This document shows positions 6,001 through 49,000 of a stretch of DNA of 64,000 nucleotides, in pieces (position 1 is the first letter of the stretch; each line of letters opens with the position of its first letter). The position numbers were made by a program, and so were the translations under genes. Where the stretch lies: positions 384,001-448,000 of the forward strand of contig JBGANV010000005.1 of the NCBI GenBank assembly GCA_044222185.1, given 5' to 3'. A model generated the notes under the pieces. That model was not told the DNA's origin. It did not search any database and was given only the letters and a program-made list of their open reading frames with translations. Source of the stretch: Planctomycetota bacterium (lineage in GTDB: Bacteria > Planctomycetota > GCA-002687715 > CAIWVZ01).

Positions 6001-8564
6001 GCGGCGGTGGAGCCCTCCACCTGCGTTCAGCCTCGGGCCTCATCACCATCAACGGCGCCGTCCGCGCCAACGGGTTCAACGCGACGGGATGCAACGCCGG
6101 TGGTGGATCCGGCGGCAGCATCTGGATCGAAACGCCTCTCCTCACGGGTGCCGGTGCCATCACATCCAACGGCGGAAACGGTAACGGCGGTGGCGGCTGC
6201 GGCGGTGGCGGCGGCCGCATCGCGGTGTTCTCGCCGGTCCCGATCTCGGGCGTCGCGCTGACGGCGTTCGGTGGGAACGGAGTGCAGCGCGGCGGCGCCG
6301 GGACGATCGACGTCGTGTTGGCCGGCCAGCATGGAACGTTCGTCGTCGACAATGGTGGTTCGAGCGGGAACGTCACTCCGATCACCGGACCCGTAACCTT
6401 CGACGCCGATCTGATCGTCACGGGCGGCGCGACTCTCCAGATTCCCTCGGGAACGCTGACCTACCTCGGCAACGCCGTCCTCGGCACTGGCCAACTCTCG
6501 GGGTCGGGGACACTGGACGTCGATGGAAGCGTCACCTGCAACGGAATGGCTCTGGCGTCGACGCCGCCTTCCATCCGCTGCGGCGGCAACTGGACTGCGG
6601 ACGCCTCGTTCGCTCCGACCGGTGGCACCATCGAACTGGACGGTGCGGCGCCGAGCACCATCGGCGCGTCGACCTCGGGCGGCGTCGTCAAGTTCTTCAA
6701 CCTCGTCATCCGCAATGGCGTGCGTGGTGCGATGAACTCTCCCGTGGTGAGCGCATCGAGCATCCTGGTCGATGCCAGCGGAACGATCGACGTCGGCACC
6801 GGCCAGGCCCTGACGATCAATCGCGCGCCGGCCCCCACGACCGTCACGATCGACGGAGTCCTATCCGTCGGGACCGCGCAGCTGCTACTTGGCCCAACGA
6901 CGGCACTGAGCGTGACGGCCGCGGGAACCTTGCGGCTCCTGGGCTCGCCCTCGACACGTGCCACGGTGGCGGGCACCGCAGGCGGCGGCTTCGGGTTGAC
7001 GGTGAACGGAACCATCGCAGCCCGCAACTTCGCCGTGCGTGACGTGAACTCGAGCGGCGTCGTCATACCGGCGACCGCGACGATTGCCCCCTTCCCCAAC
7101 GACTTCCGTGGTGGAACGTTCGACCTGCGTGCGGGTGCGACGGCGGGTTCGACGCTCCTCGACATCCAGAGACCGGCGCCGACCACTCTCGCGTACCTGG
7201 ATTTCCGGAACACGCCGGGCGCCGCGGGCGTGACGAACGTCCGCTGCACGAGCGGTGCCCCGATCACGCTGAACAACTGGACGGGGCCATTCGGCGGTTC
7301 CGCGTTCGAGTCCGATCCGGGGAATCGAGTCACCTGGAACGCAGAACAGCACACGACGCTCGCATCGTTTCGAGCGCGTGGACTCGCCGAGAAGGCCGAC
7401 ATCGTCTGGACGACGTCGGTCGAGGTCGACGTCGCCGCGTTCATCGTCGAGCGCGCAAGCACGTCGCTTGGCCCATGGATGACGATCGCGAGTTTCTCTC
7501 CGGCGGGTCCATCGTTCTATGGGATGACCGACGCGGGCCTCACGGCAGGACAGACGTACTACTACCGCCTGTCCGAGCGGCTCACGCATGACCCGGTGAA
7601 CGAGCTCGCCACCGGCCAGGCGACGCCATACAGCTCCGCGCCACCCGCCAACGTCTTCAAGGTCGGCGCGGGCGGGCCCTACGCGACGATCCAATCGGCG
7701 ATCAGCGCCGCGACGGCCCCGACGTCGATCGTCTGGGTGACACCGGGTACGTACCCCGCGTTCATCGTCGACGGCAGTGCTCCGCCCAACCTGAAGGTGA
7801 TCGGCGGCGGATCGGGTCCCGTCATCATCGATACGACGGCTGCAGCGGTGCTGATCTCGGGCGTGCCGGCGGGTCGAACGGTCGAGATCGCGGCGCTCTC
7901 CATCGGTTCCACCACGTCAGGCCACGACGCCGTCGACATCGTCGGCTGCGGGGGCGCCATCGTCCTCGACGCCCTCACGGTGATCGGAGGCTCGGGAATG
8001 CGCGGAATCGACGTCGCCGCGTCGACCGGTGTGGCCATCCAGAGATCTCAGATGTCGGGGACTCCAGGCCTTCGGCTCGCGGGAGGGTCCAACGTCGCGG
8101 CAAGCCGTGGGTCGTTGGATGCTCTCGCAGTCATCACGGGATCGAGCCTCCAGGTCACCGATCTGGTGCCGGGTGCCGTCACGGTCGACGGGACTCAGAC
8201 CCTCGTCGCCAACGCGGGACTCATGCCCGACCTGAACCTCCCACGGTTCCCCTCGCTCGGCGCCTACGAATCGTTCGACCTGACGACGTTCCCGAACAGT
8301 GTCGTCCTGATCGGGATCTCGACGGGTGCGGGATTCATCGGAGGTCTTGCCCCGATCCAGATGCCGTTCCTTCTCGACCCGGCAAGTCTGGCGATCCTGC
8401 CGATCCTTGCGGCTGACGCCACCGGCCACCTCGGATTCGGGTTCGAGTTGGAACCGAACGTCGCACTCCTCGGATTGACGTTCGAAGTGCAGGTGACTTC
8501 ACAGGACCCGTCCACGGGCGTGATCCGATTCTCGAACCTCGCGACGATGGTGGGACTGCCGTGA
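15..8564 (+). CDS. Giant modular surface/secreted protein: N-terminal propeller-like region, internal CTD-like domain, IPT/TIG domains, Gly-rich repeat array, FN3-like domain, beta-helix-like region and a C-terminal conserved domain; probably 5'-truncated
   Basis: 2849-aa ORF. IPT/TIG motif (VTPSCGSTVGGTTITINGASF), repeated GGSHGG/GGGSGGSLWI/GGGGRIAV units, FN3-like DAGLTAGQTYYYRL, and YATIQSAI beta-helix start. There is no signal peptide or RBS at 15, so the true start is probably upstream of the window. The stretch ~3272-3570 is out of frame because of compensating deletions. Confidence 0.8.
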   Translation: MCITVTDGGRRMFFYDFDSTAGAEHWYVMETTRSSQAAQWGPAQQVWVFPAPSARFASFVTYFSNHVGTAPDDGLELFITLDPTCCTCQTAPYVLRRSSPGSPFTSFGQVTEFPSCGGYLDHVQALLCSPDGLTMLYSTGTSATMLFLRASRASAFVSTSSQIVTPGLNCMTVMSGTSDWRELLVWSQFSCLTPGYKLGRTTVNGLVNTGHLSSTSSADLVYRDLSAAPGTAAGGAIAWGFTPGTTSGGSTWPLTNDALFQQTYLTNLPGLTAGFLTALDSLGEAHAAVGPLPPQTEGDTFYCAFATLNASSPSASVVRMSNAIAIRMQPASAAAQVQHPCATGTGCTAPPVGPGPYGVQYGPPVVLPQGPLSFADAVHAPVQEGTYYSAASTFCNPCDALGAPDYDSGDPLQPGPGTGHVATQQHGAYSLGHRGSIELAFTDNALTNSGSSQPDLYVWEAGNHAEDFFVALHPADAYTTTVMAGTPPGLDTDGNFPLPLVTGPSFVHGIDIDQSLPGFSAGSLRFDRVKLKDSPGCPLPPCEPPTTSETQAGADIDAVAAVGFPPVSGPPPFVSLVTPSCGSTVGGTTITINGASFTVPGAVAAPTVAIGGFPAQVVSFTSTQIVAVTPPSLQIGNAVVTVTAPTGIATASAPFVYTAQPAISSVTLGQSCPVVGQPTAITITGTGFLPTCTTAFVNGSPIVGTSSGGPNITSTTLTGQFTAATAGPITISLLNPGWPVAQFGVPGFAANASDVVLTQPVTIDASNLGVFTNASVIVCNTTLTIATPTTLQSIALVAGSTLTHPAGITGGATVTVSGNAYIDAGSAVDVSGRGALSAASGSTGGSHGGLGGLAATNAAHGSIVAPMDCSAGGRGGGALQLIVTGTLTHNEVIRSNGANGTACNAGGGSGGSLWIQAASLTGLGTITANGGSGSGGVGGGGSGGRIAVISPANTSAFTYAVSGGAGLGGRGGAGTIYTQFNGATLGDLVVDNGGNAGNRTILNGTVTQFANVLVKGAATLSHEFAVSGLFLDVPGTIIVEAGAAIDASGYGNTGGGITAGGSHGGQGGGASGAVHGSIANPTDFGTGRHGLQRRRPRRWSPPPAFSLGPHHHQRRRPRQRVQRDGMQRRWWIRRHLDRNASPHGCRCHHPTAETVTAVAAAAVAAAASRCSRRSRSRRRVDCVRWNGVQKGGAGTIYTLIGAATIGDLVVDNGGTTVGNMTDVNVDGVINVFQNVAVHGGGVLMLSGTPVFASLVVDTSGIVTHLVGPASGLTLQVLGPATIASSGSVDVSGRGALSAASGSTGGSHGGLGGLAATNAAHGSIVAPVDLGSGGGMDCSAGGRGGGALQLIVTGTLTHNGVIRSNGANGTACNAGGGSGGSLWIQAASLTGLGTITANGGSGSGGGGGGGSGGRIAVISPANTSAFTYVVSGGAGVAGRGGAGTIYTQFNGATLGDLVVDNGGNAGNRTILSGTVTQFANVLVKGAATLSHEFAVSGLFLDVPGTIIVEAGAAIDASGYGNTGGGNITAGGSHGGQGGGASGAVHGSIANPTDFGTGGGMDCNAGGRGGGAIHLRSALGSITINGAVRANGFNATGCNAGGGSGGSIWIETPLLAGTGAITCNGGNGSGGNGNGGGGGRIAVFSPIPISGVALTAFGGNGVQKGGAGTIYTLIGAATIGDLVVDNGGTTVGNMTDVNVDGVINVFQNVAVHGGGVLMLSGTPVFASLVVDTSGIVTHLVGPASGLTLQVLGPMTIASSGSVDVSGRGALSAASGSTGGSHGGLGGLAATNAAHGSIVAPVDLGSGGGSGGSLWIQAASLTGLGTITANGGSGSGGVGGGGSGGRIAVISPANTSAFTYAVSGGAGLGGRGGAGTIYTQFNGATLGDLVVDNGGNAGNRTILSGTVTQFANVLVKGAATLSHEFAVSGLFLDVPGTIIVEAGAAIDASGYGNTGGGNITAGGSHGGQGGGASGAVHGSIANPTDFGTGGGMDCNAGGRGGGALHLRSASGLITINGAVRANGFNATGCNAGGGSGGSIWIETPLLTGAGAITSNGGNGNGGGGCGGGGGRIAVFSPVPISGVALTAFGGNGVQRGGAGTIDVVLAGQHGTFVVDNGGSSGNVTPITGPVTFDADLIVTGGATLQIPSGTLTYLGNAVLGTGQLSGSGTLDVDGSVTCNGMALASTPPSIRCGGNWTADASFAPTGGTIELDGAAPSTIGASTSGGVVKFFNLVIRNGVRGAMNSPVVSASSILVDASGTIDVGTGQALTINRAPAPTTVTIDGVLSVGTAQLLLGPTTALSVTAAGTLRLLGSPSTRATVAGTAGGGFGLTVNGTIAARNFAVRDVNSSGVVIPATATIAPFPNDFRGGTFDLRAGATAGSTLLDIQRPAPTTLAYLDFRNTPGAAGVTNVRCTSGAPITLNNWTGPFGGSAFESDPGNRVTWNAEQHTTLASFRARGLAEKADIVWTTSVEVDVAAFIVERASTSLGPWMTIASFSPAGPSFYGMTDAGLTAGQTYYYRLSERLTHDPVNELATGQATPYSSAPPANVFKVGAGGPYATIQSAISAATAPTSIVWVTPGTYPAFIVDGSAPPNLKVIGGGSGPVIIDTTAAAVLISGVPAGRTVEIAALSIGSTTSGHDAVDIVGCGGAIVLDALTVIGGSGMRGIDVAASTGVAIQRSQMSGTPGLRLAGGSNVAASRGSLDALAVITGSSLQVTDLVPGAVTVDGTQTLVANAGLMPDLNLPRFPSLGAYESFDLTTFPNSVVLIGISTGAGFIGGLAPIQMPFLLDPASLAILPILAADATGHLGFGFELEPNVALLGLTFEVQVTSQDPSTGVIRFSNLATMVGLP
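2496..6287 (+). repeat. Intragenic tandem direct repeat, ~2.7 copies of a 1416-bp unit
   Basis: GTCGACGTCAGCGGCCGTGGCGCACTC starts at 2496, 3876 and 5292, and the DNA is near-identical after each start. The third copy diverges after ~6287. Confidence 0.95.
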
Positions 8565-11983: not shown

Positions 11984-12260
11984 ATGTCGACGCCGAGCCC
12001 GCACGACCGAAGCGGGGTCCGCAGGCGGCACGGCTCGACGACGACGGCGCATCCCCGCGTCGATCCAGGCCCGGCGAACGGCCGGGCGGGGCCCGTCATC
12101 TCGGCTCACCAACTTTTTTTTCCGGGGGCCTGTAATGCCGAGGCAACTCGACGCACCGGTAAGACTGTTGTGATCGGGGAACCGGTTGCAGTTGGAGCCG
12201 TCGAGCGACGGTTCGGCTGACCGGATCCTGCCCTCGATCCTCTCCCGACATGAGGTCGCC

Positions 12261-14369
12261 GTGAATACACGCATGGATCGCCGTCTGTTCGCAGTCGTCA
12301 TCGTGGCCGGACTGGGGCTTCTCGCCACGGCGCGGCTGATGACGAACACCTCCGGGCGGGGCGGCCGACCTTCGGCGGAAGCCGCGCCGACGCCGATGCG
12401 ACCGGAGTCCCGGCCGACGGTCGCGGCCGAGCGGATCACCGCAAACGCGTTCGCGTCGACGGAGAATGCCGCACTGCGTGGCCAGGCGACCTCCCTGACC
12501 GGTCGCGTGATCGACACCAGCGGCGTCCCGATCGAGGGCGCCCTCGTCGCAATCCACGCGGACCCGACCCGCGGACGCGGCACGCCCGCGGAGACGACGG
12601 CGCTCACCGAGACGATCTCGAACGAGGACGGCCGATTCACGTTCGACGGCATCCTCTGGAGCCAGGTCTACGCCTTGCGCGTGGAACACGACGGATTCCG
12701 CATCAAGCGCGTGCGGCCGATCCACGTGGACGACCCCGCATCGCTGAACCAGACGGTGACTCTCCAGCGCGGCGCTGACCTCACGGGGACCGTCCGGAGC
12801 GACGACCACACGCCGCTCGCCGACGTGGACGTCTCCGTGTTCGAGTCCATCGGTCCTTCAGCGCGCCCGACCCCTCTCTTCGAACGCCACGTCCGCACGG
12901 CCCGCGACGGAACGTTCCGCATCCCGGCGATCACGCCCGGCGTGAAGCGCCTCGTCGCGGAGAAGGCGGGATTCGCCACGGAGATCGTCGAAGAACACCG
13001 CTTCGGCGGAGCGGCGGACGAACCACCCGTCGAGATCATCCTCAGTCATGGCGAGACGGTCTGCGGTCGCGTCATCGATGCGATCGCGGGCGGCGGGCTC
13101 GCCGGCATCCGCATCGGGCTGCGCATGCGCGGCCCGTGGGCACCTCCATCCGGCGTGACGAAGCCCGACGCCGGAACGCCGGCATCCTCGCGCGCCGTCC
13201 CCGCCGGATCGTGCGAGCGCATCGACCCGCACGTCGTGATGAGCTCCGTCGGAGCCGACGACGGCGCGGCCCTGGTCTCGCGCTTTCCGGACGCGATCCG
13301 CTCGCGGGCCCTCTTCGATCTGTTCACCGTGTCCGGCGAGAACGGCGCGTTCAGGTTCACCGGCCTGTGCCGCGCCGAGTACGTCGCATTCATCGCCGAC
13401 GACACGGCGTCCCAGGGCACGGAGTGGATCGTCCACGCCGGAGAAACGGACGTGACGCTCGACATCGCGCCCGGCGGAACGGTGGCGGGCCGCGTCATCG
13501 ACGCTGACTCGGGCTCACCCGTGACCGGCTTCGCCATCGCCGCATCGTGCGCAGCGGAGTCGGGATTCGTGACCGGCGACAAGCGTCGTCAGCTCACGAG
13601 CCGTGACGGCCGCTTCCTCCTGCGGACGGCCGTCGGCGCTGCCGTGAACGTCTTCGTCTGGGCGAATGGGTTCACGGACGGCTACGCCGGCCCGTTCGAG
13701 ATCCGCCCGAACACCGCACTCGCCGACGTCACGATCGCCATGCACCGCGCCGCCCGCGTCCACGGACTCGTCACGGGGCCGCGCGGCGAGACCGTCCGGG
13801 GCGCGATCGTCACGCTCGTCGATCCGTTTCCAGCCGTCGAATCAGGCATGATCCGTTTCATGACGCGCCGCTCGCTCGGCGCCCTCGCGGGGCTGACGAC
13901 CCTCACGGACGACACGGGGAACTTCACGCTCTGCGGCGTCCCCGCCGGGGAGTTCGCGCTCCGCATCCGCCACGCGGAATTCGCCGAGTCGGAAACCCCG
14001 AGCTTCGTGTGCTCCGGCCGCGGAGACCACCAGGTGCAAGACACCACGCTGCATCGCGGCGCCGCACTCGAAGGCAAGGTGCTCGGCATGGAAGGCACGA
14101 CGACCCACGTGATCGTCCGCGGCATGTGGCCCAACGCGCCCATCCGCGAACTCGACGGCGCTGCCGGCACGACCCTCCGCTGCACCGGCCTGCCGGCCGG
14201 CACGTACCAGATCCTCACGTCGACGGGGCAGACACCGGACCCGGCGACGTTCCTGAAACAAGCTCGAACGGTCCCCACCATCGAGCTGCGCGACGGTGAA
14301 ACCACCACGGGATTGTTCTTCGGCGAAGCACCTCCGCAGGAGGCGCCGCCGCGGAGCAAGAACCGATAG
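12261..14369 (+). CDS. Carboxypeptidase-regulatory-like (Cna-B/transthyretin-like) repeat protein with N-terminal membrane anchor
   Basis: Repeated GRVID..G.PI.GA.V and T..DGRF motifs; N-terminal hydrophobic helix. GTG at 12261 follows GAGG (alternative ATG 12273). Confidence 0.8.
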   Translation: MNTRMDRRLFAVVIVAGLGLLATARLMTNTSGRGGRPSAEAAPTPMRPESRPTVAAERITANAFASTENAALRGQATSLTGRVIDTSGVPIEGALVAIHADPTRGRGTPAETTALTETISNEDGRFTFDGILWSQVYALRVEHDGFRIKRVRPIHVDDPASLNQTVTLQRGADLTGTVRSDDHTPLADVDVSVFESIGPSARPTPLFERHVRTARDGTFRIPAITPGVKRLVAEKAGFATEIVEEHRFGGAADEPPVEIILSHGETVCGRVIDAIAGGGLAGIRIGLRMRGPWAPPSGVTKPDAGTPASSRAVPAGSCERIDPHVVMSSVGADDGAALVSRFPDAIRSRALFDLFTVSGENGAFRFTGLCRAEYVAFIADDTASQGTEWIVHAGETDVTLDIAPGGTVAGRVIDADSGSPVTGFAIAASCAAESGFVTGDKRRQLTSRDGRFLLRTAVGAAVNVFVWANGFTDGYAGPFEIRPNTALADVTIAMHRAARVHGLVTGPRGETVRGAIVTLVDPFPAVESGMIRFMTRRSLGALAGLTTLTDDTGNFTLCGVPAGEFALRIRHAEFAESETPSFVCSGRGDHQVQDTTLHRGAALEGKVLGMEGTTTHVIVRGMWPNAPIRELDGAAGTTLRCTGLPAGTYQILTSTGQTPDPATFLKQARTVPTIELRDGETTTGLFFGEAPPQEAPPRSKNR

Positions 14370-14424: not shown

Positions 14425-15783
14425 ATGAATCGCAGTCTGTCCACACTCGTCGTCTTCGCAGTTCTCGCCGCAGCCGCCTCCGGCCAGACCGGCATCCTCG
14501 TCGGCCAGGCGATCTCCCTCAATCAGCCGATTCCGCCGCAGGGGACCGGTGGCACATGTGGAACGCCGCAGTCGACGGCGGTCGTCGGCTTCACAGTGAC
14601 CACGCTCGGAGTCGTCCACGCACCGGCCATCACCCTCAACATCGACCACACGTTCGTCGGTGACCTCACGATGACGCTCTCGCACGGCGGAACGTCGGTG
14701 ACCCTCTCGAACGGGAACTCCTTCTTGGGACTCCCCGCGACGCGCGAGCTGCACGGCAACTACACCTTCCAGGATTCAGCGCCGACGGCGTTCTTGAACG
14801 CCCCGTGGACCGGGGTCACGTTCAACCCGGGCGCGTACCGTCCCGCGTCGCCGCTCGCCGTCTTCAACGGCATGGCGATCGCCGGCACGTGGACGCTCAC
14901 GATCTGCGACGAGGCGCCCAGCGACTCGGGGGTGCTCCACAGCCTCGAAGTCGTTTGCGAGTTCGGCGGCGCTGCCGTGGCGGACGTCGGTCTGCCGGCC
15001 GCGATCCCGCCGCAGGGAACCGGCGGTGTGTGCTCGTCGCCCGGCAACACGACCGTTCGCACGGTGAACATCGGCACGCCCGGACGCGTCGCCTACATGT
15101 GGGCCGATCTGAACATGAACCACACCTTCTCGAGCGACCTCCGCATCTCCATCAGCCACAACGGCGTCACACGCATGCTCTTCGACGGCGACAACGACGG
15201 AACGGGCAGCGCCGCCTTCGCCGGGACGTACTCGTTCAACTCCGGACCAGGTCCCCAGATCAACGGCGCGAGCGTCAGCGGCGGCACGGTGCAGCCCGGG
15301 AGCTACGCGGCGAGGGAGTCGCTCTCGGTCTTCACCGGCATGGAGATGAGCGGGGCGTGGACCCTCAGCATCTGTGACCAGTACTCGGTCGACACGGGGA
15401 GCTTGAACGGCCTCGTGCTGCGCCTCGCGAGCGAAGGGTTCACGCTCTCGCTTGCGCAGCCGTCCGGGTCGGCGTCGATCTCGGCGCATGACGCCAACGG
15501 GTCCGCAGTCGGCAACGGCTACTTCAACGCGTTCACGACGACGGCCGGTGCCTATCCCTACGGCTGGTTCGAGGGCATCGACATCCTGCAAAGCGAGCTG
15601 CTCTTCCAGTTGAACCTGCCGCTGCCGCTCTTCGCCGGCACGCTCGGCGCCAACGTCGATGCGACGCCGACACTGACTGCGACGATCCCGGGCGGCATCA
15701 CGCTCTACGGCGTCGCCCTCGAGATCGGCGGGAACCAGATCCGCCAGGTCGCTCCGCCGATCGCCTACACGACGGCCCCCTGA
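14425..15783 (+). CDS. Secreted protein with two proprotein-convertase P-domains and a conserved C-terminal domain
   Basis: AAGGAG RBS and signal peptide (AAAASG/Q). Two copies of HTF..DL...LSH and F.G....G.WTL.ICD....D.G.L P-domain motifs; no subtilase catalytic domain. Confidence 0.85.
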   Translation: MNRSLSTLVVFAVLAAAASGQTGILVGQAISLNQPIPPQGTGGTCGTPQSTAVVGFTVTTLGVVHAPAITLNIDHTFVGDLTMTLSHGGTSVTLSNGNSFLGLPATRELHGNYTFQDSAPTAFLNAPWTGVTFNPGAYRPASPLAVFNGMAIAGTWTLTICDEAPSDSGVLHSLEVVCEFGGAAVADVGLPAAIPPQGTGGVCSSPGNTTVRTVNIGTPGRVAYMWADLNMNHTFSSDLRISISHNGVTRMLFDGDNDGTGSAAFAGTYSFNSGPGPQINGASVSGGTVQPGSYAARESLSVFTGMEMSGAWTLSICDQYSVDTGSLNGLVLRLASEGFTLSLAQPSGSASISAHDANGSAVGNGYFNAFTTTAGAYPYGWFEGIDILQSELLFQLNLPLPLFAGTLGANVDATPTLTATIPGGITLYGVALEIGGNQIRQVAPPIAYTTAP

Positions 15784-15852: not shown

Positions 15853-17214
15853 ATGCTTCGCAACGACACGCTCCGACTCTCGGCTCTCATCCTCGTCCTC
15901 ACCTCTTCACTGGCGGCCCAGACGGCGGCGACGCGCGCGTTCCATTTCACGCCCAACGCCACGATCCCACCCAGCGGATCGGGCGGCGCCTGCGGCACGA
16001 CCTCATCGACGTTCACCGTTCCCATGCCGATTTCGGCCGTGGGACTCGTGAGCAGGGTGAGCGTCACGCTCGGAATCGACCACACGTACGTCGGTGACCT
16101 GGACATCTCCCTCCAACACGATGGCGTGACCGTTCCGCTGTGCAGCGGCTCCAACGCCTCCAACCCGACGCTCCAGCTCCACGGGCAGTACACGTTCGCG
16201 GATGCAGCGGGCGCGGCGTTCGTGCTCGCGTCCTCGGCGGGATCTCCGCCCACGATCGTGCCCGGCACGTACCGTCCGACGCAATTCCTCTCGGCGTTCA
16301 ACGGCACGAGCGCTGGCGGAGTGTGGAGCCTCACGGTGTGCGATCAAGCGTCCGCGGACGTGGGCGTGCTCCACGACGTCACCGTCACGGTCGGACTCGC
16401 GGGGCCGACGATCATCGACCCCGCGCCGCCCTCCGCGATTCCGCCCACCGGCACCGGCGGCACCTGCGGCCTGCCGTCGACGACGTTCACGCGAACGATC
16501 GGCGTGCCAGCGTCCGGTCACGTGGCTGAAGTGCGAGTCCGGCTGAACATGGGCCACAGCTGGGCGTCCGACCTCGTCATCACCCTGAGCCACGACGGCG
16601 TCTCGCGGCTGTTGTTCAACGGGCCGGGCTCGGGGCTGAGCGACCAGGATCTCTCGGGCAACTACACGTTCGCGGACACGGACGGCGTCTCCATCGCGAC
16701 CGGCGTCGTCAACGGAGTCGTCCAACAAGGGACGTACCTGCCGTCCGCGAGCTTCGTCCCATTCCGGGGTCGGGAGGCCGCGGGCACGTGGCAGCTCACG
16801 GTGTGCGACCGCGCGTCGAGCGACGTGGGTTACCTCTCCGCGTTCGAACTGGACCTGGTGATGGAGGGCTTCACGATGGCGATCCAGCAGCCGGCGGGCG
16901 CGGCCTCGGTGTCGACCCGTGACCAGAACGGCGCGCAGGCCGGTGACACGTACTTCAACGCGCTCACGCTCACGGCGGGCAGCTACCCCTACGGGTGGTT
17001 CCACGGAATCGACATCGGCTTCGACGAACTCACGTTCCAGTTGAACCTGCCGATCCCGTTCTTCAACGGCACGCTCGATGGTTCGGTGACGGCCGTGGGC
17101 ACGATCCCGGGACCGATCCCGGGCGGCATCCACGTCTATGCCGTCGGGATCGACTTCCGCGCGGGCGCCGCAGCGCAGACGTCGGTGCCCGTCAGCTACG
17201 TGACGGCGCCCTGA
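15853..17214 (+). CDS. Secreted tandem P-domain protein, paralog of 14425..15783
   Basis: Signal peptide (SSLAA/Q); [32 protein letters not shown]; collinear with the upstream paralog. Confidence 0.85.
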
Positions 17215-18703: not shown

Positions 18704-20386
18704 TCACACGCCGAGTTCGAGGTCCAGACCGTTGGTCACCTGGTAGATGGGATTCTGTGACGCCGGAACCAGGATGGCCTGAAGGCGGAAGGTCACGCAT
18801 TCGACGGCGGGATCGCTCGGAAGCGGCCCCGTCAACGACCAACCGCCGCTGGCGTTCGTCGTGAATGCCGTGAGGATGTCGAGCCCCAGGACCCAGAGGT
18901 AGCCCTGGCACCCTCCAACGAGTTCGGTCGGCCCGGGCGGAATGGCACTCACGAGGAGGAGCCCCGCGGTCGACGGAACGGCCCCCGAGACCGACAACGT
19001 GCCGATCGAACCGAGGACTGGCGGCGTGCCGCTCAGTGATGGCCCGGGGAGACCGCCATAGGAGCATCCGAAACCCACCGTGAACACCAGCGCGGTGTGC
19101 CGGACGACGGACAGCTTGAACGTCCCTTGCTGGCCGTTGTAGCCAGCCACGCGAATGAAGTACGCATGGCCCGCGATCGTCGGGAACGTGACGTCGGTCA
19201 GGAATCCCTGCGGCCCGCATCCCGAATCGTCGGCACACCCGACGATGTCCCCCGCCGAAGGACACGTGGGCGAATCATAGACCGTGATCTGAGAGTCCGT
19301 CATCGTGCCCCCGGCCGCGACCGTGGGACACGTGGAGACCGTCGCCTCACCGGTGCATCCGGCGATCCAGAAGAAGAAGACGTCGCTTCCTCCCAGGTTG
19401 CCGAGCGCACCGCACGCGGTGGCGAACGTCGGTGAATTCGAGAGGGTCGCGCCGACGTTCGTGTACAGACCCGACGCCGGGTTGAGACCCTCGGCGAGTT
19501 GGATCGCGCCGAAGCACTCGTCGTTCGGGAGCTGGACGAGGAGCGCGATGAGCCCGGTCGCCGTCCGGTTCGAGGAATCCGTCGCCGTGAGGGGCAGGTT
19601 GTAAGGAGCTGCCTGCACGCCGGGCGGCAGGACGTAGGCGAGCGAGAACGTGCGGTCGCCGGCCACGGCGTCGCCATGCGTTCCGTCGTCGAAGAACGTG
19701 GCGTTGGCGGATCCGCCGACTGCGGCGAGGTTCGCGTGCACGCTCACGGCGGTCGGCGGGTTGGGTGGTGCCGTCGCCGTGACGGCGGCCGTGAGCAGAA
19801 CGTTGTTCGCGATGACGACCGCGCTCGGCGACGCCGCTCCGGCCACCTGGAGAGTCGGGGCGGTCACGACGGCGAGCGTGTAATCCTCCGTATTGCCGAA
19901 TCCCGCGCTGCCGCAGGCGGACGGTGGCCCTCCCGGGCAGCATCCGTCGAACACCAAGCGCACGCGCATGCGGACCGACGCGGCGCTCCCAGCAGGCGGC
20001 GTGACGTTCGCGACGAACGTCCGCGTGGTTCCGCCGCCGGCCGTCAACGAAAGCGGGATCGTCTCGTTGGAATCGAGGAAATCACCGTCGGCGTTCCAGT
20101 CGCAGAACGCGGTGACCTGATCCCCGGGGAGATAACGGCTCACGGTGACCGTCATCGGTGACGGAACGCCGGGCACGAGCGACGTCGACGTCGACGTGTA
20201 ATCCTCGTAGCCAGGCGGCGCGACACACGCGGAGCTTCGGTCGATGGACGCGAGCTGCACGCGGCTGATGTACTCGTCGCTCCCGCAGTTGAATCCCGTG
20301 TTGGGAGCGCTGCAGTACTGGGCGCGTGCGACTGGAACGCTGAGGACGATCGTCGCACACAGTGCGGCGAGTTGGGACGACTTCAT
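18704..20386 (-). CDS. Secreted GEVED-domain protein with choice-of-anchor-X-like Ca-binding motif and conserved C-terminal domain
   Basis: Signal peptide (VARA/Q); EYISRVQLASI, DWNADGDF.D..E, RMRVR, GNTEDY (GEVED); FDDGTHGDAVAGD..F; PNDEC..A and YFIRVAGY domain. Confidence 0.85.
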   Translation of the reverse strand: MKSSQLAALCATIVLSVPVARAQYCSAPNTGFNCGSDEYISRVQLASIDRSSACVAPPGYEDYTSTSTSLVPGVPSPMTVTVSRYLPGDQVTAFCDWNADGDFLDSNETIPLSLTAGGGTTRTFVANVTPPAGSAASVRMRVRLVFDGCCPGGPPSACGSAGFGNTEDYTLAVVTAPTLQVAGAASPSAVVIANNVLLTAAVTATAPPNPPTAVSVHANLAAVGGSANATFFDDGTHGDAVAGDRTFSLAYVLPPGVQAAPYNLPLTATDSSNRTATGLIALLVQLPNDECFGAIQLAEGLNPASGLYTNVGATLSNSPTFATACGALGNLGGSDVFFFWIAGCTGEATVSTCPTVAAGGTMTDSQITVYDSPTCPSAGDIVGCADDSGCGPQGFLTDVTFPTIAGHAYFIRVAGYNGQQGTFKLSVVRHTALVFTVGFGCSYGGLPGPSLSGTPPVLGSIGTLSVSGAVPSTAGLLLVSAIPPGPTELVGGCQGYLWVLGLDILTAFTTNASGGWSLTGPLPSDPAVECVTFRLQAILVPASQNPIYQVTNGLDLELGV

Positions 20387-25624: not shown

Positions 25625-26032
25625 TCTTTGCAGCGGGGTGCGCGGGCCCCATCCGCTGGTGGCGACCCGGTCGTCACGCCGAGCCGCCGCCACGGATCCC
25701 ACGCGGGGGGCACTCTACATGACGAGGCGCGGGGGACGACGCACCCGCCCACGCGTCGAGCGGCCTCCGTCGCGCGGTCGAATCGGCGCGCCCCAAGGAA
25801 ATTCCTCCGGGTCGAGCGGGTTGGCGGCGCCAGCACCGAACCCCCGCTCGCCGGCGTCCGACGAAGGGGTGACGCACCCGACCGATGGCGACCGCCGATC
25901 CCCGGGGCGACTCCGGCGAATTCCGCCTGACGGAGTCCCAGCTCCGCGCCATCGGCGCGAACGCGACGGGGGCTCGCCTCGCCGGCCCGAATGAGGCTTG
26001 CTTCGTCGAGCGCCGTTCCGTGAAATGCTCCG

Positions 26033-37740: not shown

Positions 37741-37935
37741 CCGGTTCGAATCGGACGGGGCCCGGCGCTCCGGTTTGCGGGCCGGCACGACGCCGCGCCG
37801 AGCCGCCCGACGGCCCGCGCATGGCCAGGAGCGTTGACGTTCGCGGAACCCCCGGCCATGATGCCCGACCGCGTGGCTCGACGCTCCACCGCATTCGCGA
37901 TGCGTCGATCCGGCCGCGCACGAAGGGGACCGCCA

Positions 37936-43543: not shown

Positions 43544-43554
43544 AAGTGCGGTGC

Positions 43555-43818
43555 ATGCTCCGCATCACCCACGACGTCACCACGACCGCTTCGACCCTCA
43601 CGATCGAGGGGCAGGTGCGGGGGCCATGGGTTGCAGAACTCCGACGCGCCGTCGCCCAGGCCGGGGCTCCCGGGCGCGCCATCCACGTGGACGCCGCGGG
43701 CGTGCGGTTCGCCGACTCCGACGGCACGGCGCTCCTCCGCGAACTCGCCCGCCAGGGTGTGACGTTCGTCCGCACCTCCCCCTTCGTCGACCACCTGCTC
43801 GGTCGAGACATCACATGA
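43555..43818 (+). CDS. Small STAS-domain protein
   Basis: MLRIT...TL.IEG...GPWV.EL and VDAAGVRFADSDG..LL, resembling the STAS D...V.F.DSSG motif. Confidence 0.8.
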   Translation: MLRITHDVTTTASTLTIEGQVRGPWVAELRRAVAQAGAPGRAIHVDAAGVRFADSDGTALLRELARQGVTFVRTSPFVDHLLGRDIT

Positions 43819-44456
43819 GATCAGCCGCCTCGTCCGCCATTCACTCCGCGTCCTCGACGTACGCCCAGGAAACCGATCAGGCACTCGTCGACCGCCTTCG
43901 GGCTGGGGACGATGACGCCGCGGAGTGGCTCATCCGGACCTACTCGCCCGGGCTCCTTGCGACCGCGCGCCGCTACGTTCGCGGCGATGACGACGCTCAG
44001 GACGTGCTCCAGGAGGCCTTCCTCCAGGCGCTGCGTGCGCTCGACCAGTTCCGGGCCGATTCCCGACTGGCGACATGGCTGCATCGCATCGTGATCAACG
44101 CGGCGTTGATGAAGCTCCGTTCGCGGCGACGGCGCCCGGAGCTGGCGCTCGATGACCTCCTCCCGAGCTTCGACACCGAAGGCCGACACGCATCACCGGT
44201 TGCAGCCTGGCACTGTGGTGCCGAGGCGGCGCTCGAAGGCAGCGAGCTTCGTGCACTGGTTCGGGGAGCGATCGCGCGCCTCCCAGCGGCCTACCGCGAG
44301 GTGATCATCCTCCGGGACATCGAAGGCCTCGACACGGCGGAGGCGGCGGAGGCGCTCGGGACGACGGTCGCCGCGGTGAAGGTGCGGCTGCATCGCGCGC
44401 GGATCGCGCTGCGTGCGTTGATCGAGCCGCTCATGCGCGACGCCGTCCCGACATGA
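43815..44456 (+). CDS. ECF RNA polymerase sigma factor
   Basis: DAQDVLQEAFLQA, TWLHRIVINAALMKLR, LPAAYREVIILRDIEG, VKVRLHRAR. Its ATG overlaps the STAS stop (ATGA). Confidence 0.93.
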   Translation: MRSAASSAIHSASSTYAQETDQALVDRLRAGDDDAAEWLIRTYSPGLLATARRYVRGDDDAQDVLQEAFLQALRALDQFRADSRLATWLHRIVINAALMKLRSRRRRPELALDDLLPSFDTEGRHASPVAAWHCGAEAALEGSELRALVRGAIARLPAAYREVIILRDIEGLDTAEAAEALGTTVAAVKVRLHRARIALRALIEPLMRDAVPT

Positions 44457-44531: not shown

Positions 44532-46181
44532 TCACGGGAACTGTTGCGTGTCGACGTCTGTGAGGCTCGTCGTCGCCCCGACGATCTGAACCGACCGTGC
44601 CTGCAGCGTGATCGGGAAGTTCAGTCCGGGGATCTGCTGGTGGTACGCCCCAGACGCATTCGTCGTCGCCGTGAGCGGCGGGATGCCGTACAGCGCGATG
44701 AAGTTGGTGAAGGCGGAGACGTCCAGTCCGAAGAACGGCCCGGATCCGGCCGGCGTCAGGGGCGTCGTGCTCACGAGCGTGTAGACGACCTGATTCGGCG
44801 CCGCGTTCGAGATCGAGAAGTCCAGCACGCCCGTCGACGGCTTGCTGATGTCGAGCGTGAACGTGGGCGCCGGCGGAACCTGCATGAACACGTGATAGCC
44901 GACGCAATTGCCGACGATGAAGTCCAGCGCGCCGTCGTTGTTCAGGTCGATGAACGCCGTGTCGTGCGTGCCCGTCGTGTAGATGTTCGGCGTGATTCCT
45001 GCCTGGGCGTAGTCATCCGTGAGGATGATGGGGTCGTTCGGATGCACCGTGAGGAGCACCGCGTGCCGGCTGCAGCCGGGGATGTCTACGTCCGTGTCGT
45101 CGAGCGCCACGTACCGCTTGCCGTTCATCGTGATCACGTAGGCGTTCCCGGAGAACCCGGTCGTATTCGGCGAGAAGCCCGGCTGCCCAGCGTTCGTGTT
45201 CAACGCGAACGTGGCGAAGGTCGGATTCCCCGACGTCGGATAGGGGGAAGTCGTGTTGAGGCTGTAGGCATCCTGGGGGTCACGGCCCTGGTAGATGTCG
45301 ACCTTGCCGTCACCGTCGAGGTCACCCACGGCCGACACGTACGTCGCGTTGGCCGACACCTGCAGCATCGTGTTGAAGCCTCCCGCCCCGTTGTTGACGT
45401 GGAGCTTCATCAGACCAGCCGTGCCGTCGGACTCGGCGATGTCCTTCCAGCCGTCGCCGTTGAAGTCGGCGAAGTTGATCTCCACGGAGAAGTTGCTGGA
45501 CGGGTTGGCCAGGCGCGTCGACGTCACGTCCGTGAAGAAGCCGGCGCCGTTGTTCAGCAGCAACCGATCCTCGAGCGTGTTGTTGTAGTCGCCCAGCATC
45601 AGGTCGAGGTCGCCGTCGTTGTCGATGTCCCCGGCCGAACCCGCGCAAAAGCGCGGAACGGGATTGAAGGTCGGGACGTGGCCCGGCTCCAGCAGCAGCC
45701 CCTGCCAGACGCCGCCCACGGAGCCCAGGTTCCGGTAGTAGTCGGTCTGGAAGCTCGTCGGCGCATTGGGCGGCTCGGTGTTCGTGTTCACCACGATCAC
45801 GTCGAGCCAGCCGTCGCCGTTGAAGTCGCCGATGATCGGCTTTCGCGCGAGCGTCGGAGTCAGGAATCCCGGCGCCAACGCGGAGGTCATGTCCGTGAGG
45901 ACGCCGTTCACGTTCATCAGAAGGAAGTGCGTGCGCGGGCCGGGGGCGTAGAACGCCTCCTTTCGGACGCAGACGAGGTCGAGATCGCCGTCGTTGTCCA
46001 AGTCGCCCGTCTCGAAGTCCTTCTCATCCGGGTCAGTCGTGACGTTCGGCATGATGAGCCGCGTCGAGACCTGGTCGACGAAGACGGGAAGTTGGGCCTG
46101 CCCCACGCCGACGCCCGTAACCAGGGTGACCGCAGCGGCAACGGCCAGCAGCCGGCGCGCGATCGAGTTGCAATCAGTCAT
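44532..46181 (-). CDS. Secreted FG-GAP/VCBS repeat protein with conserved C-terminal domain
   Basis: Signal peptide (GVGQA/Q); GDLDNDGDLD, GDFNGDGWLD, GDIDNDGDLD, ADFNGDGWKD, GDLDGDGKVD, DLNNDGALD. Confidence 0.9.
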   Translation of the reverse strand: MTDCNSIARRLLAVAAAVTLVTGVGVGQAQLPVFVDQVSTRLIMPNVTTDPDEKDFETGDLDNDGDLDLVCVRKEAFYAPGPRTHFLLMNVNGVLTDMTSALAPGFLTPTLARKPIIGDFNGDGWLDVIVVNTNTEPPNAPTSFQTDYYRNLGSVGGVWQGLLLEPGHVPTFNPVPRFCAGSAGDIDNDGDLDLMLGDYNNTLEDRLLLNNGAGFFTDVTSTRLANPSSNFSVEINFADFNGDGWKDIAESDGTAGLMKLHVNNGAGGFNTMLQVSANATYVSAVGDLDGDGKVDIYQGRDPQDAYSLNTTSPYPTSGNPTFATFALNTNAGQPGFSPNTTGFSGNAYVITMNGKRYVALDDTDVDIPGCSRHAVLLTVHPNDPIILTDDYAQAGITPNIYTTGTHDTAFIDLNNDGALDFIVGNCVGYHVFMQVPPAPTFTLDISKPSTGVLDFSISNAAPNQVVYTLVSTTPLTPAGSGPFFGLDVSAFTNFIALYGIPPLTATTNASGAYHQQIPGLNFPITLQARSVQIVGATTSLTDVDTQQFP

Positions 46182-46236
46182 CCAGAGTCTCCTCGTGAAG
46201 GTTCGTTGGTTGGTCGTGTTGCCGACGGGCGGCCCG

Positions 46237-47235
46237 TCACGTCGTGAAGCGCTGTGGCGCCGTCCATTCGACGATGTTGCCGCCCGCGATTCGCAGGCCG
46301 ACCGCGTCGAACGTCAGCCCGGCCGGGATGTTGATCGGACCGAGCGAGAACTGGCCGGTAGCGCTCAACAGCACGTGGAAGGGGATCGAGCCGATCGGGC
46401 TGAGCACTTGGGAAATGATCCCGTCATCGAATGCGATCCCGAACACCGGGCCCGTACCCGCCGGCTGCACCAGCGAGAAGCTGAACAGGTTGTAGACCTC
46501 GGCTCCCGGATTCGCGGGCGCCTGGTTGCGGAACGTGTACTGCCCGCCCCCGTTGTTGACGAGGGAGATGGACATGGGTGGCGGCGGGACGGTCCCGAGT
46601 CGAACGTTGTCCAGGTAGGCCGAAGACGGAACGGCCCCGTCACCGACGTTCGCGACGTAGATGCGAAGGGTGAATGCAGTCGACGGAGTCGACGACGGGA
46701 ACAAGGCGAGGAGATCGACGGAGATCGTCGCCTTTGCGGTCGCTGGATTGCCGCTCGTCGCGGCGCACGCCGTCTGCGAGAACTGGCCGGTCGCCGAGTC
46801 GATGAGTGCGAGCTGCACCGTGGTGGTCCCGCTGGAGATCGTCACGGCGGTGAAGTCGTTGAACGTCATCTGCCCAGGCCCCTCCGCCGTGATGAACGCG
46901 AGGTCGAGCTGCAGGAAGGTGTTCGTCGCGGTACCCGTCGTGAACGTCTGGCTGATGTTGTTCGCGTTCGAATAGGACGCGGTGGTCGCCTGCGGGCCGG
47001 CGTCCACTCGGACCCACTTCGAGCCCTGGGACGGGAACCCGATGCCCGTTTCCAGCACGCAGCCCTGATAGGGGAAGATGCGCGCGACGCCCGTCGCGGA
47101 CCCGACCCATCCCGTGGGCATCGTCGTCGATCCGGCGGTGGCGCCCTCGAATGACCCTTGGCTGATCTGCGCAACCACACCGGCGCTCGCGACGAGCGCC
47201 ACGGCGAGCGTGGAAACCAGGAGACGTTCCTTCAT
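46237..47235 (-). CDS. Secreted hypothetical protein (jelly-roll/CBM-like region + conserved C-terminal domain)
   Basis: GAGG RBS and signal peptide (GVVA/Q); GSFEG, F.TAE...FNDF, VGD....SSAYLDNVRL. Confidence 0.75.
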   Translation of the reverse strand: MKERLLVSTLAVALVASAGVVAQISQGSFEGATAGSTTMPTGWVGSATGVARIFPYQGCVLETGIGFPSQGSKWVRVDAGPQATTASYSNANNISQTFTTGTATNTFLQLDLAFITAEGPGQMTFNDFTAVTISSGTTTVQLALIDSATGQFSQTACAATSGNPATAKATISVDLLALFPSSTPSTAFTLRIYVANVGDGAVPSSAYLDNVRLGTVPPPPMSISLVNNGGGQYTFRNQAPANPGAEVYNLFSFSLVQPAGTGPVFGIAFDDGIISQVLSPIGSIPFHVLLSATGQFSLGPINIPAGLTFDAVGLRIAGGNIVEWTAPQRFTT

Positions 47236-47353
47236 CGATGTCCTCGGCTTTCAGATCGAGATGCAATCGCACACGACGCGAGGGCCGCGGCGACGACCAA
47301 CCTGCGGGCGGGAGCTTGCCCGTCCGCATTGCGGCGTGCGGAACTATCGTCGT

Positions 47354-49000
47354 TCAGTTCGCCGTGTACGTGGTCAGAATGAGGCCAGAGCTTACCGCGA
47401 GACCGTTCGTGGCACCTGCATCGAGGACGAACCACTGACCGAATCCGGTCAGGTCCGAATACGACGCCTGGTTCGGGATGTTCACGAGGAACGAGGTGTG
47501 GCCCGCACCCGCAACGCCCGGACTTCCGGACAGAGTCAGCGGGACGAGAGTCTCGGGCGGCGAATCGATCCAAAGCGGCTTGCCGAGGATCGTCGCACCG
47601 GGCTGCGCGGGATTCGGAGTGAACGCGAAGTAGGCCGTGGCGCCGCCGACCGCGTTCGTCAGGCCGATCACGAAGTGGTCGTTCCCGACGTACGGCGGGT
47701 GCGGTGCGGCCCAGGTCGGGACGAAGCCGCCCGTACCTGACGAACCCGTGCCATAGGTCGCCGGGAAGTTGAACGTCAGTTCCGAGTTGAGCGTCGGGCG
47801 ATCGAACGGCGGCAGGGCGTTGGCAACGCGGGGATCGATCAACGCGTTCGTCACGAAGTCGAGCAGCTCAGCCTCCTGCGTGTGCGTCATGATCAAGGGC
47901 AGCAAGCGGACGTCCAGGTTCGGACCCGGGAAGTCACCGCCCACCTTGTAGAACGTCAGCACGTCCTGGAGCGTCGCCTTTCCTCCGTTGTGGAAGAACG
48001 GCGCGCGCAACCCGACGTTGCGAAGCGACGGAACGCGGAACTTGCCCTTGTCCGTGATCAGATTCGTCACCTCGTTGCGGCCCAGGTCCTCGATGTCGGG
48101 CCGAACGCCGATGTTGGCGAAGGAATGGTCCGTGAACAGCGGCGGGATGTGGCAGAGCGCACAGTTGGCGATGCCATTGAAGAGCAGGAGACCGTTCGTC
48201 TGCGCCGGCGTCAACGCGCTCGGGTTGCCTCCCGTGAAGAGGTCCCAGGGCGTCTGATCCGGAATCAGCGTGCGCTCGTAGGTCGCGATCGCCATGGCGA
48301 TGCGGGCGGCCGTGACGGCAGGGTCGCCGAATGCCGCCTGGAACAGCTGCGGGTAGGTCGGGTTCGCCGCGATGGCCGCGGCCATCGGGGCCGGAACGTT
48401 GGTGGCGAGATGCAATGGAACGAGTGTCGTCACCTTGGCAGCCAGCGCGGCGGGGCTGCGATTCTGGCAGGCCATCTCCACGTCCGAGACCGACGGACCC
48501 GCGGCCTGACTCTCCAATGCGCCGTCGTTCTGGATCACGACCTGCTGCGTGACGGGGTCATGGAACGTGCCGCCGGCGCGACCATCCCAGAAGAGCTCGG
48601 GGGACCATTGCGCCCCGATGAAGCTCGGCGACTTCCGCCGCGTCACCTGAGCGTTTGGGAAGAAGAAAGGCTCCGGCGTGAAATGTCCCAACGGATCGCA
48701 ACGAACGACGCCACGCGAACCGCGGATGTCGTCGGCCGTGTTGAAGACGCCATCGGGTCCGGGGCTGACGTTCTGCGGCGTTGCGGCGCGCGGATCTCCG
48801 CCGCCGACCTCGGCCATGTGGCATGAACCACACGCCGTGGTGTTGTCTGAGCTCAGCTGCTCGTCCCAGAACAGGATCTTGCCCAGCATCGCCTTTGCGG
48901 GCGTGATGGGGTTTTCGACGGGGACAGGAACGGGAGGCAGCTGCGCAACAGCGATGCGCGCCGCGGCGATGGCGACGAGAACGAAGAGTCGTGGAGACAT
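47354..49000 (-). CDS. Secreted di-heme cytochrome c peroxidase, MauG/BthA-like, with conserved C-terminal domain
   Basis: P.ENP.T.AK..LGK.LFWD..LS, CGSCH, FWDGRA, CALCH, F.VPSLRNV..RAPFFHNG. ATG 49000 follows GGAG; signal peptide AVA/Q. Confidence 0.9.
   Translation of the reverse strand: MSPRLFVLVAIAAARIAVAQLPPVPVPVENPITPAKAMLGKILFWDEQLSSDNTTACGSCHMAEVGGGDPRAATPQNVSPGPDGVFNTADDIRGSRGVVRCDPLGHFTPEPFFFPNAQVTRRKSPSFIGAQWSPELFWDGRAGGTFHDPVTQQVVIQNDGALESQAAGPSVSDVEMACQNRSPAALAAKVTTLVPLHLATNVPAPMAAAIAANPTYPQLFQAAFGDPAVTAARIAMAIATYERTLIPDQTPWDLFTGGNPSALTPAQTNGLLLFNGIANCALCHIPPLFTDHSFANIGVRPDIEDLGRNEVTNLITDKGKFRVPSLRNVGLRAPFFHNGGKATLQDVLTFYKVGGDFPGPNLDVRLLPLIMTHTQEAELLDFVTNALIDPRVANALPPFDRPTLNSELTFNFPATYGTGSSGTGGFVPTWAAPHPPYVGNDHFVIGLTNAVGGATAYFAFTPNPAQPGATILGKPLWIDSPPETLVPLTLSGSPGVAGAGHTSFLVNIPNQASYSDLTGFGQWFVLDAGATNGLAVSSGLILTTYTAN

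Follow-up and report, generated by a model that had tools for sequence, protein, structure and literature searches.

Seven secreted proteins of unrelated function, encoded within 64,000 nucleotides of planctomycete DNA, end in beta-rich domains of similar appearance, which raises the question of whether such tails mark their carriers for export, hold them at the cell surface, or serve neither purpose. The stretch (hereafter the window; C15:384001–448000) has a GC content of about 69% and belongs to a 7.08-Mb genome in 16 contigs with a completeness of 93.8%. The proteins in question are a giant protein, two P-domain paralogues (Pdom1 and Pdom2), a GEVED protein, an FG-GAP repeat protein, a hypothetical protein, and a di-haem peroxidase. 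An initial annotation had divided their tails into subtypes I and II, and proposed a lineage-specific C-terminal tag for export or surface display. Translation of the window reproduced all seven tails together with the motifs quoted for them. We found that the tails belong to two families without a name, which are placed on about 290 proteins of this genome, and we tentatively regard them as a cargo-independent module that may retain or anchor secreted proteins non-covalently at the surface.

Similarity by eye alone is insufficient to establish tail families, and it was profile searches that settled the question. BLAST between the 140-aa tails gave clear matches only for Pdom1 and Pdom2 (50% identity) and for the FG-GAP and hypothetical proteins (30%, 108 aa), while a word-indexed search with the tail of the GEVED protein returned no match besides the query. 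As tail-to-tail BLAST was too weak to link the subtypes, we applied iterated hidden Markov models (HMMs) genome-wide. Each tail was queried by phmmer, followed by five rounds of hmmbuild/hmmsearch at a domain E-value ≤ 1e-4, and all genome-wide tail counts refer to stop-to-stop open reading frames (ORFs) of ≥ 90 aa (n = 40,487). HMMs seeded with the giant, GEVED, and peroxidase tails retrieved one common set (192, 214, and 193 ORFs; pairwise overlaps of 181–188), and those seeded with the Pdom2, FG-GAP, and hypothetical tails retrieved a second (73, 78, and 68 ORFs; overlaps of 51–67). Just 0–2 ORFs were common to the sets of the two subtypes, and neither HMM had a match in reversed-sequence databases. 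Subtypes I and II are thus two separate HMM-defined families, in line with the division made by the initial annotation, and comprise 214 and 78 ORFs, respectively. The expected pattern of many hits, nearly all C-terminal and mostly on proteins with signal-peptide-like N-termini, was likewise obtained.

The total of about 290 proteins is a lower bound, because a survey of genes neighbouring the tail genes revealed divergent tails that the HMMs had missed. These secreted-looking proteins with subtype I-like tails (...FQALV.DP...L..L.L..) are encoded at C15:97294–100317(+), C11:112551–114683(+), and C4:95142–97088(+), and further ones belong to their clusters. A common origin of both families is plausible, as suggested by a weak but collinear profile match: with probabilities of 19% and 25.5% (E-values of 1.2e-3 and 7.5e-4), hhalign aligned subtypes I and II over 81–92 columns as far as the final strand. 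Two tails (C16:58043–60565 and C1:554444–555637) were matched by both HMM sets (1e-13 and 3e-16), and the structural models of both subtypes described below had neighbours in common, among them 9jtz_A, 6k7o_A, and 7khf_A.

Within the window, subtype I is represented by three proteins. The 3' part of the gene for the giant protein occupies positions 1..8564 (+), its stop-to-stop ORF of 3,025 aa starting 513 nt upstream of the window, and its end-domain (8184..8561, +) is a divergent member without the Cys pair that was included as a row of the subtype I alignment A5. The 299-aa end of this protein matched the subtype I HMM at 2.9e-13 (residues 130–297) and phmmer connected its tail to four paralogous tails; the full 3,025-aa ORF did not score with the final HMM, whereas the paralogous tails did. 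The GEVED protein (18704..20386, −) was recognised by PF20009 (46.1 bits) and by the choice-of-anchor X family NF041940 (28.7 bits; cut-off 25), the NCBI label "choice-of-anchor" being named for domains that precede varied sorting or anchoring signals. Its end-domain (18707..19081, −) carries the G.GC ... GC Cys pair, forms the first row of A5, and was the one folded for subtype I. The third protein, a MauG/MbnH-like di-haem cytochrome c peroxidase (47354..49000, −; PF03150 (CCP_MauG), 120 bits; start at the Met of MSPRLF), ends in a Cys-less "G.G..G.GG..P" variant (47357..47758, −), and its orthologues on metagenome-assembled genomes (MAGs) titled Planctomycetota retain the tail.

Subtype II is found on the remaining four. 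Pdom1 (14425..15783, +) consists of a signal peptide, two P_proprotein domains assigned by Pfam, and an end-domain (15376..15780, +) that was matched by the subtype II HMMs at 6e-17 to 3e-31 and contributes a row to alignments A2 and A4. Pdom2 (15853..17214, +) has the same two P_proprotein domains and an end-domain (16807..17211, +) matched at 1e-25 to 2e-32. The FG-GAP repeat protein (44532..46181, −), identified by Pfam, ends in a domain (44535..44939, −) matched at ~1e-18. The cargo of the hypothetical secreted protein (46237..47235, −) matches neither a Pfam nor an NCBIfam family; its end-domain (46240..46599, −) is the first row of A4 and the one folded for subtype II. By inspection, all seven proteins have a signal peptide ending in a small-x-small motif followed by Gln. 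The initial annotation had noted this for the six N-termini visible in the window, and the giant protein, whose N-terminus was read from the genome outside the window, conforms (...STAA, then QA). The further claim that every large secreted non-lipoprotein here bears a tail is roughly right: the two other large envelope proteins of the window (12174–14369 and 26024–28696) lack a tail and possess a membrane anchor at the N-terminus.

Neither family has a name in Pfam-A or NCBIfam. No match at E ≤ 1 was found on any of the seven tails, where only the cargo could be named, and of the tails searched against Pfam-A and NCBIfam 20.0 (44 of subtype I, 42 of subtype II), no two matched the same family at this threshold. 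PDB sequence profiles gave best E-values of only 0.74 (subtype I) and 0.26 (subtype II), and the nearest ESM-Atlas clusters were unnamed fragments, most commonly from Planctomycetota. A literature search on planctomycete and Phycisphaerae C-terminal domains, sorting, signal peptides, Ig-like domains, dockerins, and choice-of-anchor proteins retrieved no description of these domains, and the parts of PMC11266412 and PMC12673574 available to us mention neither C-terminal domains nor sorting or secretion systems.

The end-domains are approximately 115–130 residues long. The subtype I consensus (A5, 44 sequences) reads ..G.GC.G..G..P.L.....P..G...[strand]...A...L..S.....P.....GC...LD....[variable]....G.......IP..P.L.G.....Q..V.D.........SNGL......-stop, with a Cys pair in most members and none in those of the peroxidase type. 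The subtype II consensus (A4, 42 sequences) reads Q.G.G...........PG.E..N.FS.......G.GP..GL......L..Q...P.G..PFH......G......P...P.G...D.V.....GG.....S...R....-stop. Given A5 and A4 as input, AlphaFold2 modelled the GEVED tail as a beta-sandwich of eight strands (m3e9d37faa44d; pLDDT 94.8, pTM 0.87) and the tail of the hypothetical protein as a beta-sandwich as well (m432fe46c8717; pLDDT 95.4, pTM 0.86). Judged from these models, we are confident that both families adopt an immunoglobulin-like beta-sandwich fold. Their structural neighbours are generic only: Foldseek against the PDB returned weak beta-sandwich matches (TMq ≤ 0.51), and the best VIA-align matches, CHIR-AB1 for subtype I (Z 8.5, root-mean-square deviation (rmsd) 2.5, 88 aligned residues) and a match with Z 7.1 (rmsd 3.4, 88 aligned) for subtype II, lay within the stated background of the tool. 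As a specific structural relative, none of the Foldseek or VIA-align matches exceeded generic Ig-like, FN3, or carbohydrate-binding module (CBM) neighbours. A complex prediction for one subtype I and one subtype II domain scored 0.01 (mark 0.32), which speaks neither for nor against binding.

Placement on the proteins of this genome was strongly biased. The subtype II domain ends 5–15 residues before the stop codon in all 78 ORFs, and the subtype I domain ends ≤ 15 residues from the stop in 182 of 214. Copy number was one domain per ORF in 213/214 and 78/78 cases, respectively. Using a heuristic that required a start codon, a basic n-region, and a 9-residue hydrophobic core, signal-peptide-like N-termini were detected in 159 of the 182 C-terminal subtype I ORFs and in 77 of the 78 subtype II ORFs. 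In 97/159, 52/76, and 26/30 carriers (61–87%), Gln was the polar residue met first beyond the hydrophobic core, compared with a share of 13.6% for Gln among those residue types overall, and it was mostly preceded by Ala, Gly, or Ser. This habit extends to 517 of 1,593 other signal-peptide-like ORFs of the genome. A signal peptide followed by [AGS]-Gln was present in 548 ORFs, of which 174 (about a third) carry a tail. Glutaminyl cyclase PF05096 had no match in the genome; the M28-type cyclase was not part of this search.

The cargo was diverse, which bears out the cargo independence claimed before: 244 cargo regions fell into 103 single-linkage similarity clusters (largest, 86 members) of unrelated functions, including the peroxidase, P-domains, GEVED, FG-GAP, M14 carboxypeptidase, NIDO, Reeler, and HYR. 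Three cargo clusters hold both I-tailed and II-tailed proteins.

The families were then followed through related genomes. Among the 30 nearest genomes, both were present in all 22 of the same order, with 5–53 subtype II matches and 12 to at least 92 subtype I matches each; in the eight genomes of other orders, subtype II was found in none and subtype I in two. All 18 genomes of the class that are ≥ 85% complete belong to this one order, and all 18 contain subtype I (10–123 matches each). When the phylum was sampled evenly (151 genomes, this one among them), 30 genomes contained subtype I, 22 of them outside the class and mostly with ≥ 20 matches, and 13 contained subtype II, five of them outside the class with 1–2 weak matches each and all of these also with subtype I. 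Searching 1.84 billion representative proteins with the subtype II profile yielded 1,072 clusters, defined at 50% identity, with E ≤ 1e-3 (503 with E ≤ 1e-10 and 41 with E ≤ 1e-30). When the best 150 of these 1,072 clusters and the four proteins of the window were rescored, subtype II was terminal in 153 of 154. At the loci of relatives, all 25 subtype I matches ended 0–1 residue before the stop codon, and all 20 complete subtype II matches ended 7–10 residues before it.

Such a terminal position suggests an export or sorting signal as one explanation. [quoted passage not shown] T9SS CTDs (PF18962/TIGR04183 for type A, TIGR04131 for type B; Bacteroidota) are indeed comparable, being small Ig-like beta-sandwiches at the end of unrelated Sec-exported proteins, one per protein and many per genome. 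Besides the fold, this explanation would account for the extreme C-terminal placement, the single copy per protein, and the tail on about a third of the proteins with a signal peptide and Gln. Exposure of Gln by signal peptides is a further likeness: Gln at position +1, the Q-rule, was reported as specific to Bacteroidetes, the T9SS phylum (PMC5837995), and the part of this paper available to us contains no mention of Planctomycetes or PVC. Its occurrence here, outside Bacteroidetes, bears on that rule as far as the same part of the paper states it (PMC5837995).

PF18962, TIGR04183, and TIGR04131 did not match at E ≤ 1 on the seven proteins or on the 44 + 42 aligned tails. TIGR04183 had no match in the genome, and no positive-control genome matched either; SprA (TIGR04189) had none, with a positive control that matched nowhere; and PorV (NF033710) had none, with a control that matched Bacteroides thetaiotaomicron alone, and there below the cut-off; the search did not extend to GldKLMN or PorU. 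Chain 5m11_A of PorZ (residues 686–776) aligned with subtype I at Z 7.5 (rmsd 2.4, 80 aligned), a value tied with hundreds of unrelated Ig domains, and PorU chain 6za2_B, at Z 6.0, lay in the same background.

The tails also differ from T9SS CTDs in being longer (115–130 aa) and, for subtype I, in their freedom of position. An obligatory last domain, as for the T9SS CTD, describes subtype II (78/78), but not subtype I, of which 32 of 214 copies lie elsewhere (N-terminal, internal, or tandem). To our knowledge, N-terminal, internal, or tandem placement is not a feature of T9SS CTDs. Most of the non-terminal copies directly follow the signal peptide; two that were scanned precede Kelch propellers, and others precede unnamed regions. 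Some internal copies are followed by another domain of 190–240 residues, and in three proteins (C1:1117461–1119257(−), C1:1725175–1727154(+), and C14:352296–354284(+)) subtype I is followed by a conserved extension of 27–28 residues (...G[MI]T.W.N..P..GA.F.V.F.I...). The sole array-type architecture seen was that of two proteins in which a related domain of ~125 residues is present as two or three copies in tandem, connected by PPPPP linkers (C1:1324421–1325803(−) and C6:335673–336992(−)).

Homologues of the GEVED cargo allowed us to see what else may occupy the tail position. Of 19 such homologues besides the query, one carried a subtype II tail (P0238, 5.5e-25), two a T9SS CTD (P0255, Por_Secre_tail, 58.7 bits; P0248, FlgD_ig, 48.6 bits), and seven Asp-rich repeat pairs that are dockerin-like by eye; the others showed nothing recognisable or were truncated. 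The presence of T9SS CTDs in the place of the tail is a likeness that speaks for a sorting signal, and the Asp-rich pairs are one that points to dockerins (PF00404), which, together with cohesins, attach secreted proteins non-covalently through a module at the C-terminus that does not depend on the cargo. An assignment of the Asp-rich modules to Dockerin_1 was not confirmed by Pfam: of nine such proteins scanned, only P0249 gave a hit, at 20.2 bits and below the cut-off of 22.9. The tails themselves differ from dockerins in that they are beta-sandwiches without Ca-loop repeats or visible pairs of Asp-rich loops. PF00404 had no match in the seven proteins and none in the genome, with a positive control that matched in two genomes. 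The earlier statement that the tails contain no dockerin Ca-loops, and no transmembrane or basic stretch, stands.

The orthologues of the peroxidase add to this picture. The closest ones (59–60% identity including the tail) come from MAGs whose title is "Planctomycetota bacterium" or "uncultured planctomycete", and more distant ones from MAGs titled Phycisphaerales or Phycisphaerae. The loci around 80 orthologues contained 63 subtype I matches, of which 37 were terminal and 20 were followed by an Asp-rich module of ~54–77 residues, mostly on MAGs titled Phycisphaerales. In contrast to the homologues of the GEVED cargo, the Asp-rich module of these Phycisphaerales orthologues follows subtype I and does not replace it. 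For database searches, the hits of alignment A3, which had retained cargo flanks, were rescored with a trimmed HMM; because of these flanks, the sample is biased to peroxidases and is uninformative on the overall range of cargo. Among the 79 database proteins rescored, 34 ended with subtype I, 7 had 6–22 further residues, 8 had about 60 further residues with two Asp-rich loops that are dockerin-like by eye, and 30 had subtype I internally with 227–281 residues after it. One protein with the NCBI label Acidobacteriota (P0190) has the order CCP, subtype I, FG-GAP repeats.

An export signal is difficult to reconcile with several of these observations, namely the 32 non-terminal subtype I copies, most of them N-terminal after the signal peptide, the tandem copies in a few proteins, the internal position in peroxidases of other phyla, and the further module in many Phycisphaerales orthologues. 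In addition, no machinery was found near the tail genes, nor was a homologue of SprA or PorV in the searches described. We therefore consider an export or sorting signal unlikely. PEP-CTERM/exosortase systems and short tripartite signals, which also place C-terminal marks on many unrelated exported proteins in restricted lineages, differ from the tails, which are folded domains without a transmembrane helix or a basic end. Exosortase PF09721 had no match in the genome (the positive control matched), and PEP-CTERM TIGR02595 had none either, with no control genome matched.

Free placement is more typical of substrate-binding domains. As a second explanation, the tails could be lectin- or CBM-like ligand-binding or adhesion modules for a substrate outside the producer, for example a polysaccharide of algae or a different cell, with no role in locating their own carriers at the surface. 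Beta-sandwich CBMs (CBM39, i.e., the N-terminal domain of GNBP3, and CBM56) resemble the tails as single beta-sandwiches at either end of a protein, sometimes in tandem with Pro-rich linkers, and subtype I, too, is found at the N- or the C-terminus, in the interior of proteins, and as tandem copies separated by poly-Pro linkers. The N-terminal copies before Kelch propellers are also in keeping with such a role: fungal galactose oxidase has a sugar-binding beta-sandwich in the same place before its Kelch propeller. Much of the cargo is of the adhesion type (FG-GAP, NIDO, Reeler, and HYR), and the weak structural neighbours include the N-terminal domain of GNBP3/beta-GRP (Foldseek E 1e-2, TMq 0.39–0.43) and CBM56 5t7a_B (Z 6.7, rmsd 3.3, 87 aligned) for subtype II, and chitin-binding CBP21 (TMq 0.46) for subtype I. 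However, the CBM scores remain at background level (TMq 0.39–0.43, Z 6.0–6.7), as do the structural matches in general with respect to Ig-like domains. Cargo proteins are mostly not carbohydrate-active enzymes and, among those scanned, seldom glycoside hydrolases, and a single terminal copy on about 290 proteins would be unusual for a substrate binder. An external ligand thus seems to us a rather doubtful explanation.

A third explanation is purely structural, i.e., a stabilising, spacing, or oligomerising Ig-like domain that was spread by domain shuffling and paralogue expansion. The generic fold agrees with this, and paralogue expansion does explain part of the tail count, because the largest cargo cluster has 86 members. 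It is also consistent with the situation outside Planctomycetota, where the domain is an ordinary internal part of CCP-type peroxidases. In Acidobacteriota- and Binatia-labelled MAGs, CCP/MauG di-haem peroxidases have an accessory domain that is of one sequence family with subtype I (trimmed HMM, 1e-16 to 1e-23 at HMM positions ~30–160; A5, 2e-16). This domain differs in being internal, in being present as a single copy in each of the two genomes where it was found, and in not having spread to other cargo. These two were among five genomes with non-planctomycete or unclassified titles that were reached via peroxidase loci; both had exactly one copy, internal in the peroxidase, and the other three had none. 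From such single internal copies it follows that subtype I is there the accessory domain of one enzyme family; in some Planctomycetota, the domain was amplified and passed on to many cargos. Against a structural role in the amplified families stand the 103 distinct cargo clusters, the occurrence of the same cargo with either tail, the strict terminal bias, and the replacement of the domain by T9SS or dockerin-like tails in cargo homologues. Moreover, spacer Ig domains usually form arrays, whereas more than one copy was almost never seen. On balance, we regard a purely structural domain as very unlikely.

The explanation that we favour, tentatively, is a cargo-independent module for non-covalent retention or anchoring at the surface. 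A role in localisation is indicated by the scale of the families, their independence of the cargo, the one copy per protein, the preference for the terminus, the signal peptides, the swap pattern among homologues, and the fact that the searches described found no other known sorting system. The N-terminal, internal, and tandem copies, the single internal copy in other phyla, the extra module in Phycisphaerales, and the lack of detectable machinery argue against a position-dependent signal of the T9SS kind and fit a folded binding module better. In this respect, the tails would be closer to anchoring domains of the SLH, dockerin, or CBM type than to an export signal that depends on position. 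Both domains have been amplified in this planctomycete lineage and joined to about 290 Sec-exported proteins whose functions are unrelated. According to our proposal, signal peptidase I would cleave after Sec export so that Gln is exposed, and the folded domain would then keep its cargo at the envelope or on the cell surface through non-covalent binding to a shared envelope component, possibly a glycan or a protein partner. Binding, its target, and the retention of cargo at the surface are what we infer here from the families, their fold, placement, and distribution.

Several observations weigh against this proposal. A binding module that is free of position does not explain why the bias to the C-terminus is so strong, nor why the domain ends exactly at the stop codon. 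If the Asp-rich module anchors the Phycisphaerales orthologues, subtype I has another role there. The single internal peroxidase copy occurs in genomes labelled Binatia and "uncultured bacterium", and the domain is internal in proteins of Acidobacteriota-labelled MAGs as well; in these settings it has the look of an ordinary accessory part of the peroxidase. Fold scores at the generic Ig-like background make the structure uninformative on binding. Finally, no ligand, receptor, or scaffold was identified. The survey of neighbouring genes covered 1,218 ORFs of ≥ 150 aa lying up to 3 kb from tail genes and forming 1,033 clusters, with a crude filter that kept 237 of ~313 tail ORFs; it revealed no candidate machinery, but only abundant Ser/Thr kinases and further tail-like proteins.

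In view of these points, the tag proposed by the initial annotation needs to be qualified in three respects. Its lineage specificity holds as enrichment, with both families in 22/22 genomes of the order, but not as exclusivity, since subtype I is also internal in Acidobacteriota- and Binatia-labelled peroxidases. Its C-terminal position is a strong bias on signal-peptide proteins and is not obligatory for subtype I (32/214 elsewhere, and 20/63 with a further ~54–77 aa at peroxidase loci). Surface display or anchoring remains plausible, whereas the export function is weakened, as no translocon, sortase, or scaffold was found. A more far-reaching variant would make both families the cargo tags of an undescribed pathway of Planctomycetota for export and attachment at the outer membrane, functionally analogous to type IX secretion. 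It would serve about one third of the Sec-exported proteome of the class and direct subtypes I and II to different destinations, using a domain recruited from the accessory domain of di-haem peroxidases. We consider this variant speculative and improbable as a whole.

If the tails are localisation modules, the surface proteome of an entire uncultured class, as well as that of many genomes of the Phycisphaerae type, would become predictable with two HMMs, and tail fusions or pull-downs would provide a handle on the binding partner. Should they merely be amplified Ig-like domains, they would still constitute large unnamed families worth curating, with 1,072 clusters for subtype II and tens to more than 100 copies per genome for subtype I. 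Transport of proteins across the planctomycete outer membrane and their display on it are not covered by the parts of PMC11266412 and PMC12673574 available to us.

Regarding the surroundings of the tail genes, the cluster with the most neighbours comprises 71 ORFs and is found near 85 tail genes (for instance C1:672621–675581). Its members are large putative Ser/Thr kinases that are abundant genome-wide, and their C-terminal region resembles formylglycine-generating-enzyme (sulfatase-modifying) domains by eye. Within the window, the peroxidase with its subtype I tail lies beside a subtype II protein, an arrangement also seen at the loci of the three closest relatives (L079, L080, and L082), and the peroxidase/subtype II cluster at 44532–49000 (−) may be a conserved functional unit. 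Just upstream of this cluster, a 1,865-aa fusion of a Ser/Thr kinase, an AAA_16/STAND ATPase, GAF, a sigma-54 activator, and a Fis helix-turn-helix domain (37834–43431, +) adjoins genes for an extracytoplasmic function (ECF) sigma factor (43551–44456) and a FecR-like anti-sigma factor (36103–37740). Other genes of the window encode a TerB_N/TerB/TerB_C protein followed by a DEAD/Helicase_C protein (29711–35371, +), and an AddAB-like nuclease-helicase pair (49646–56466, −).

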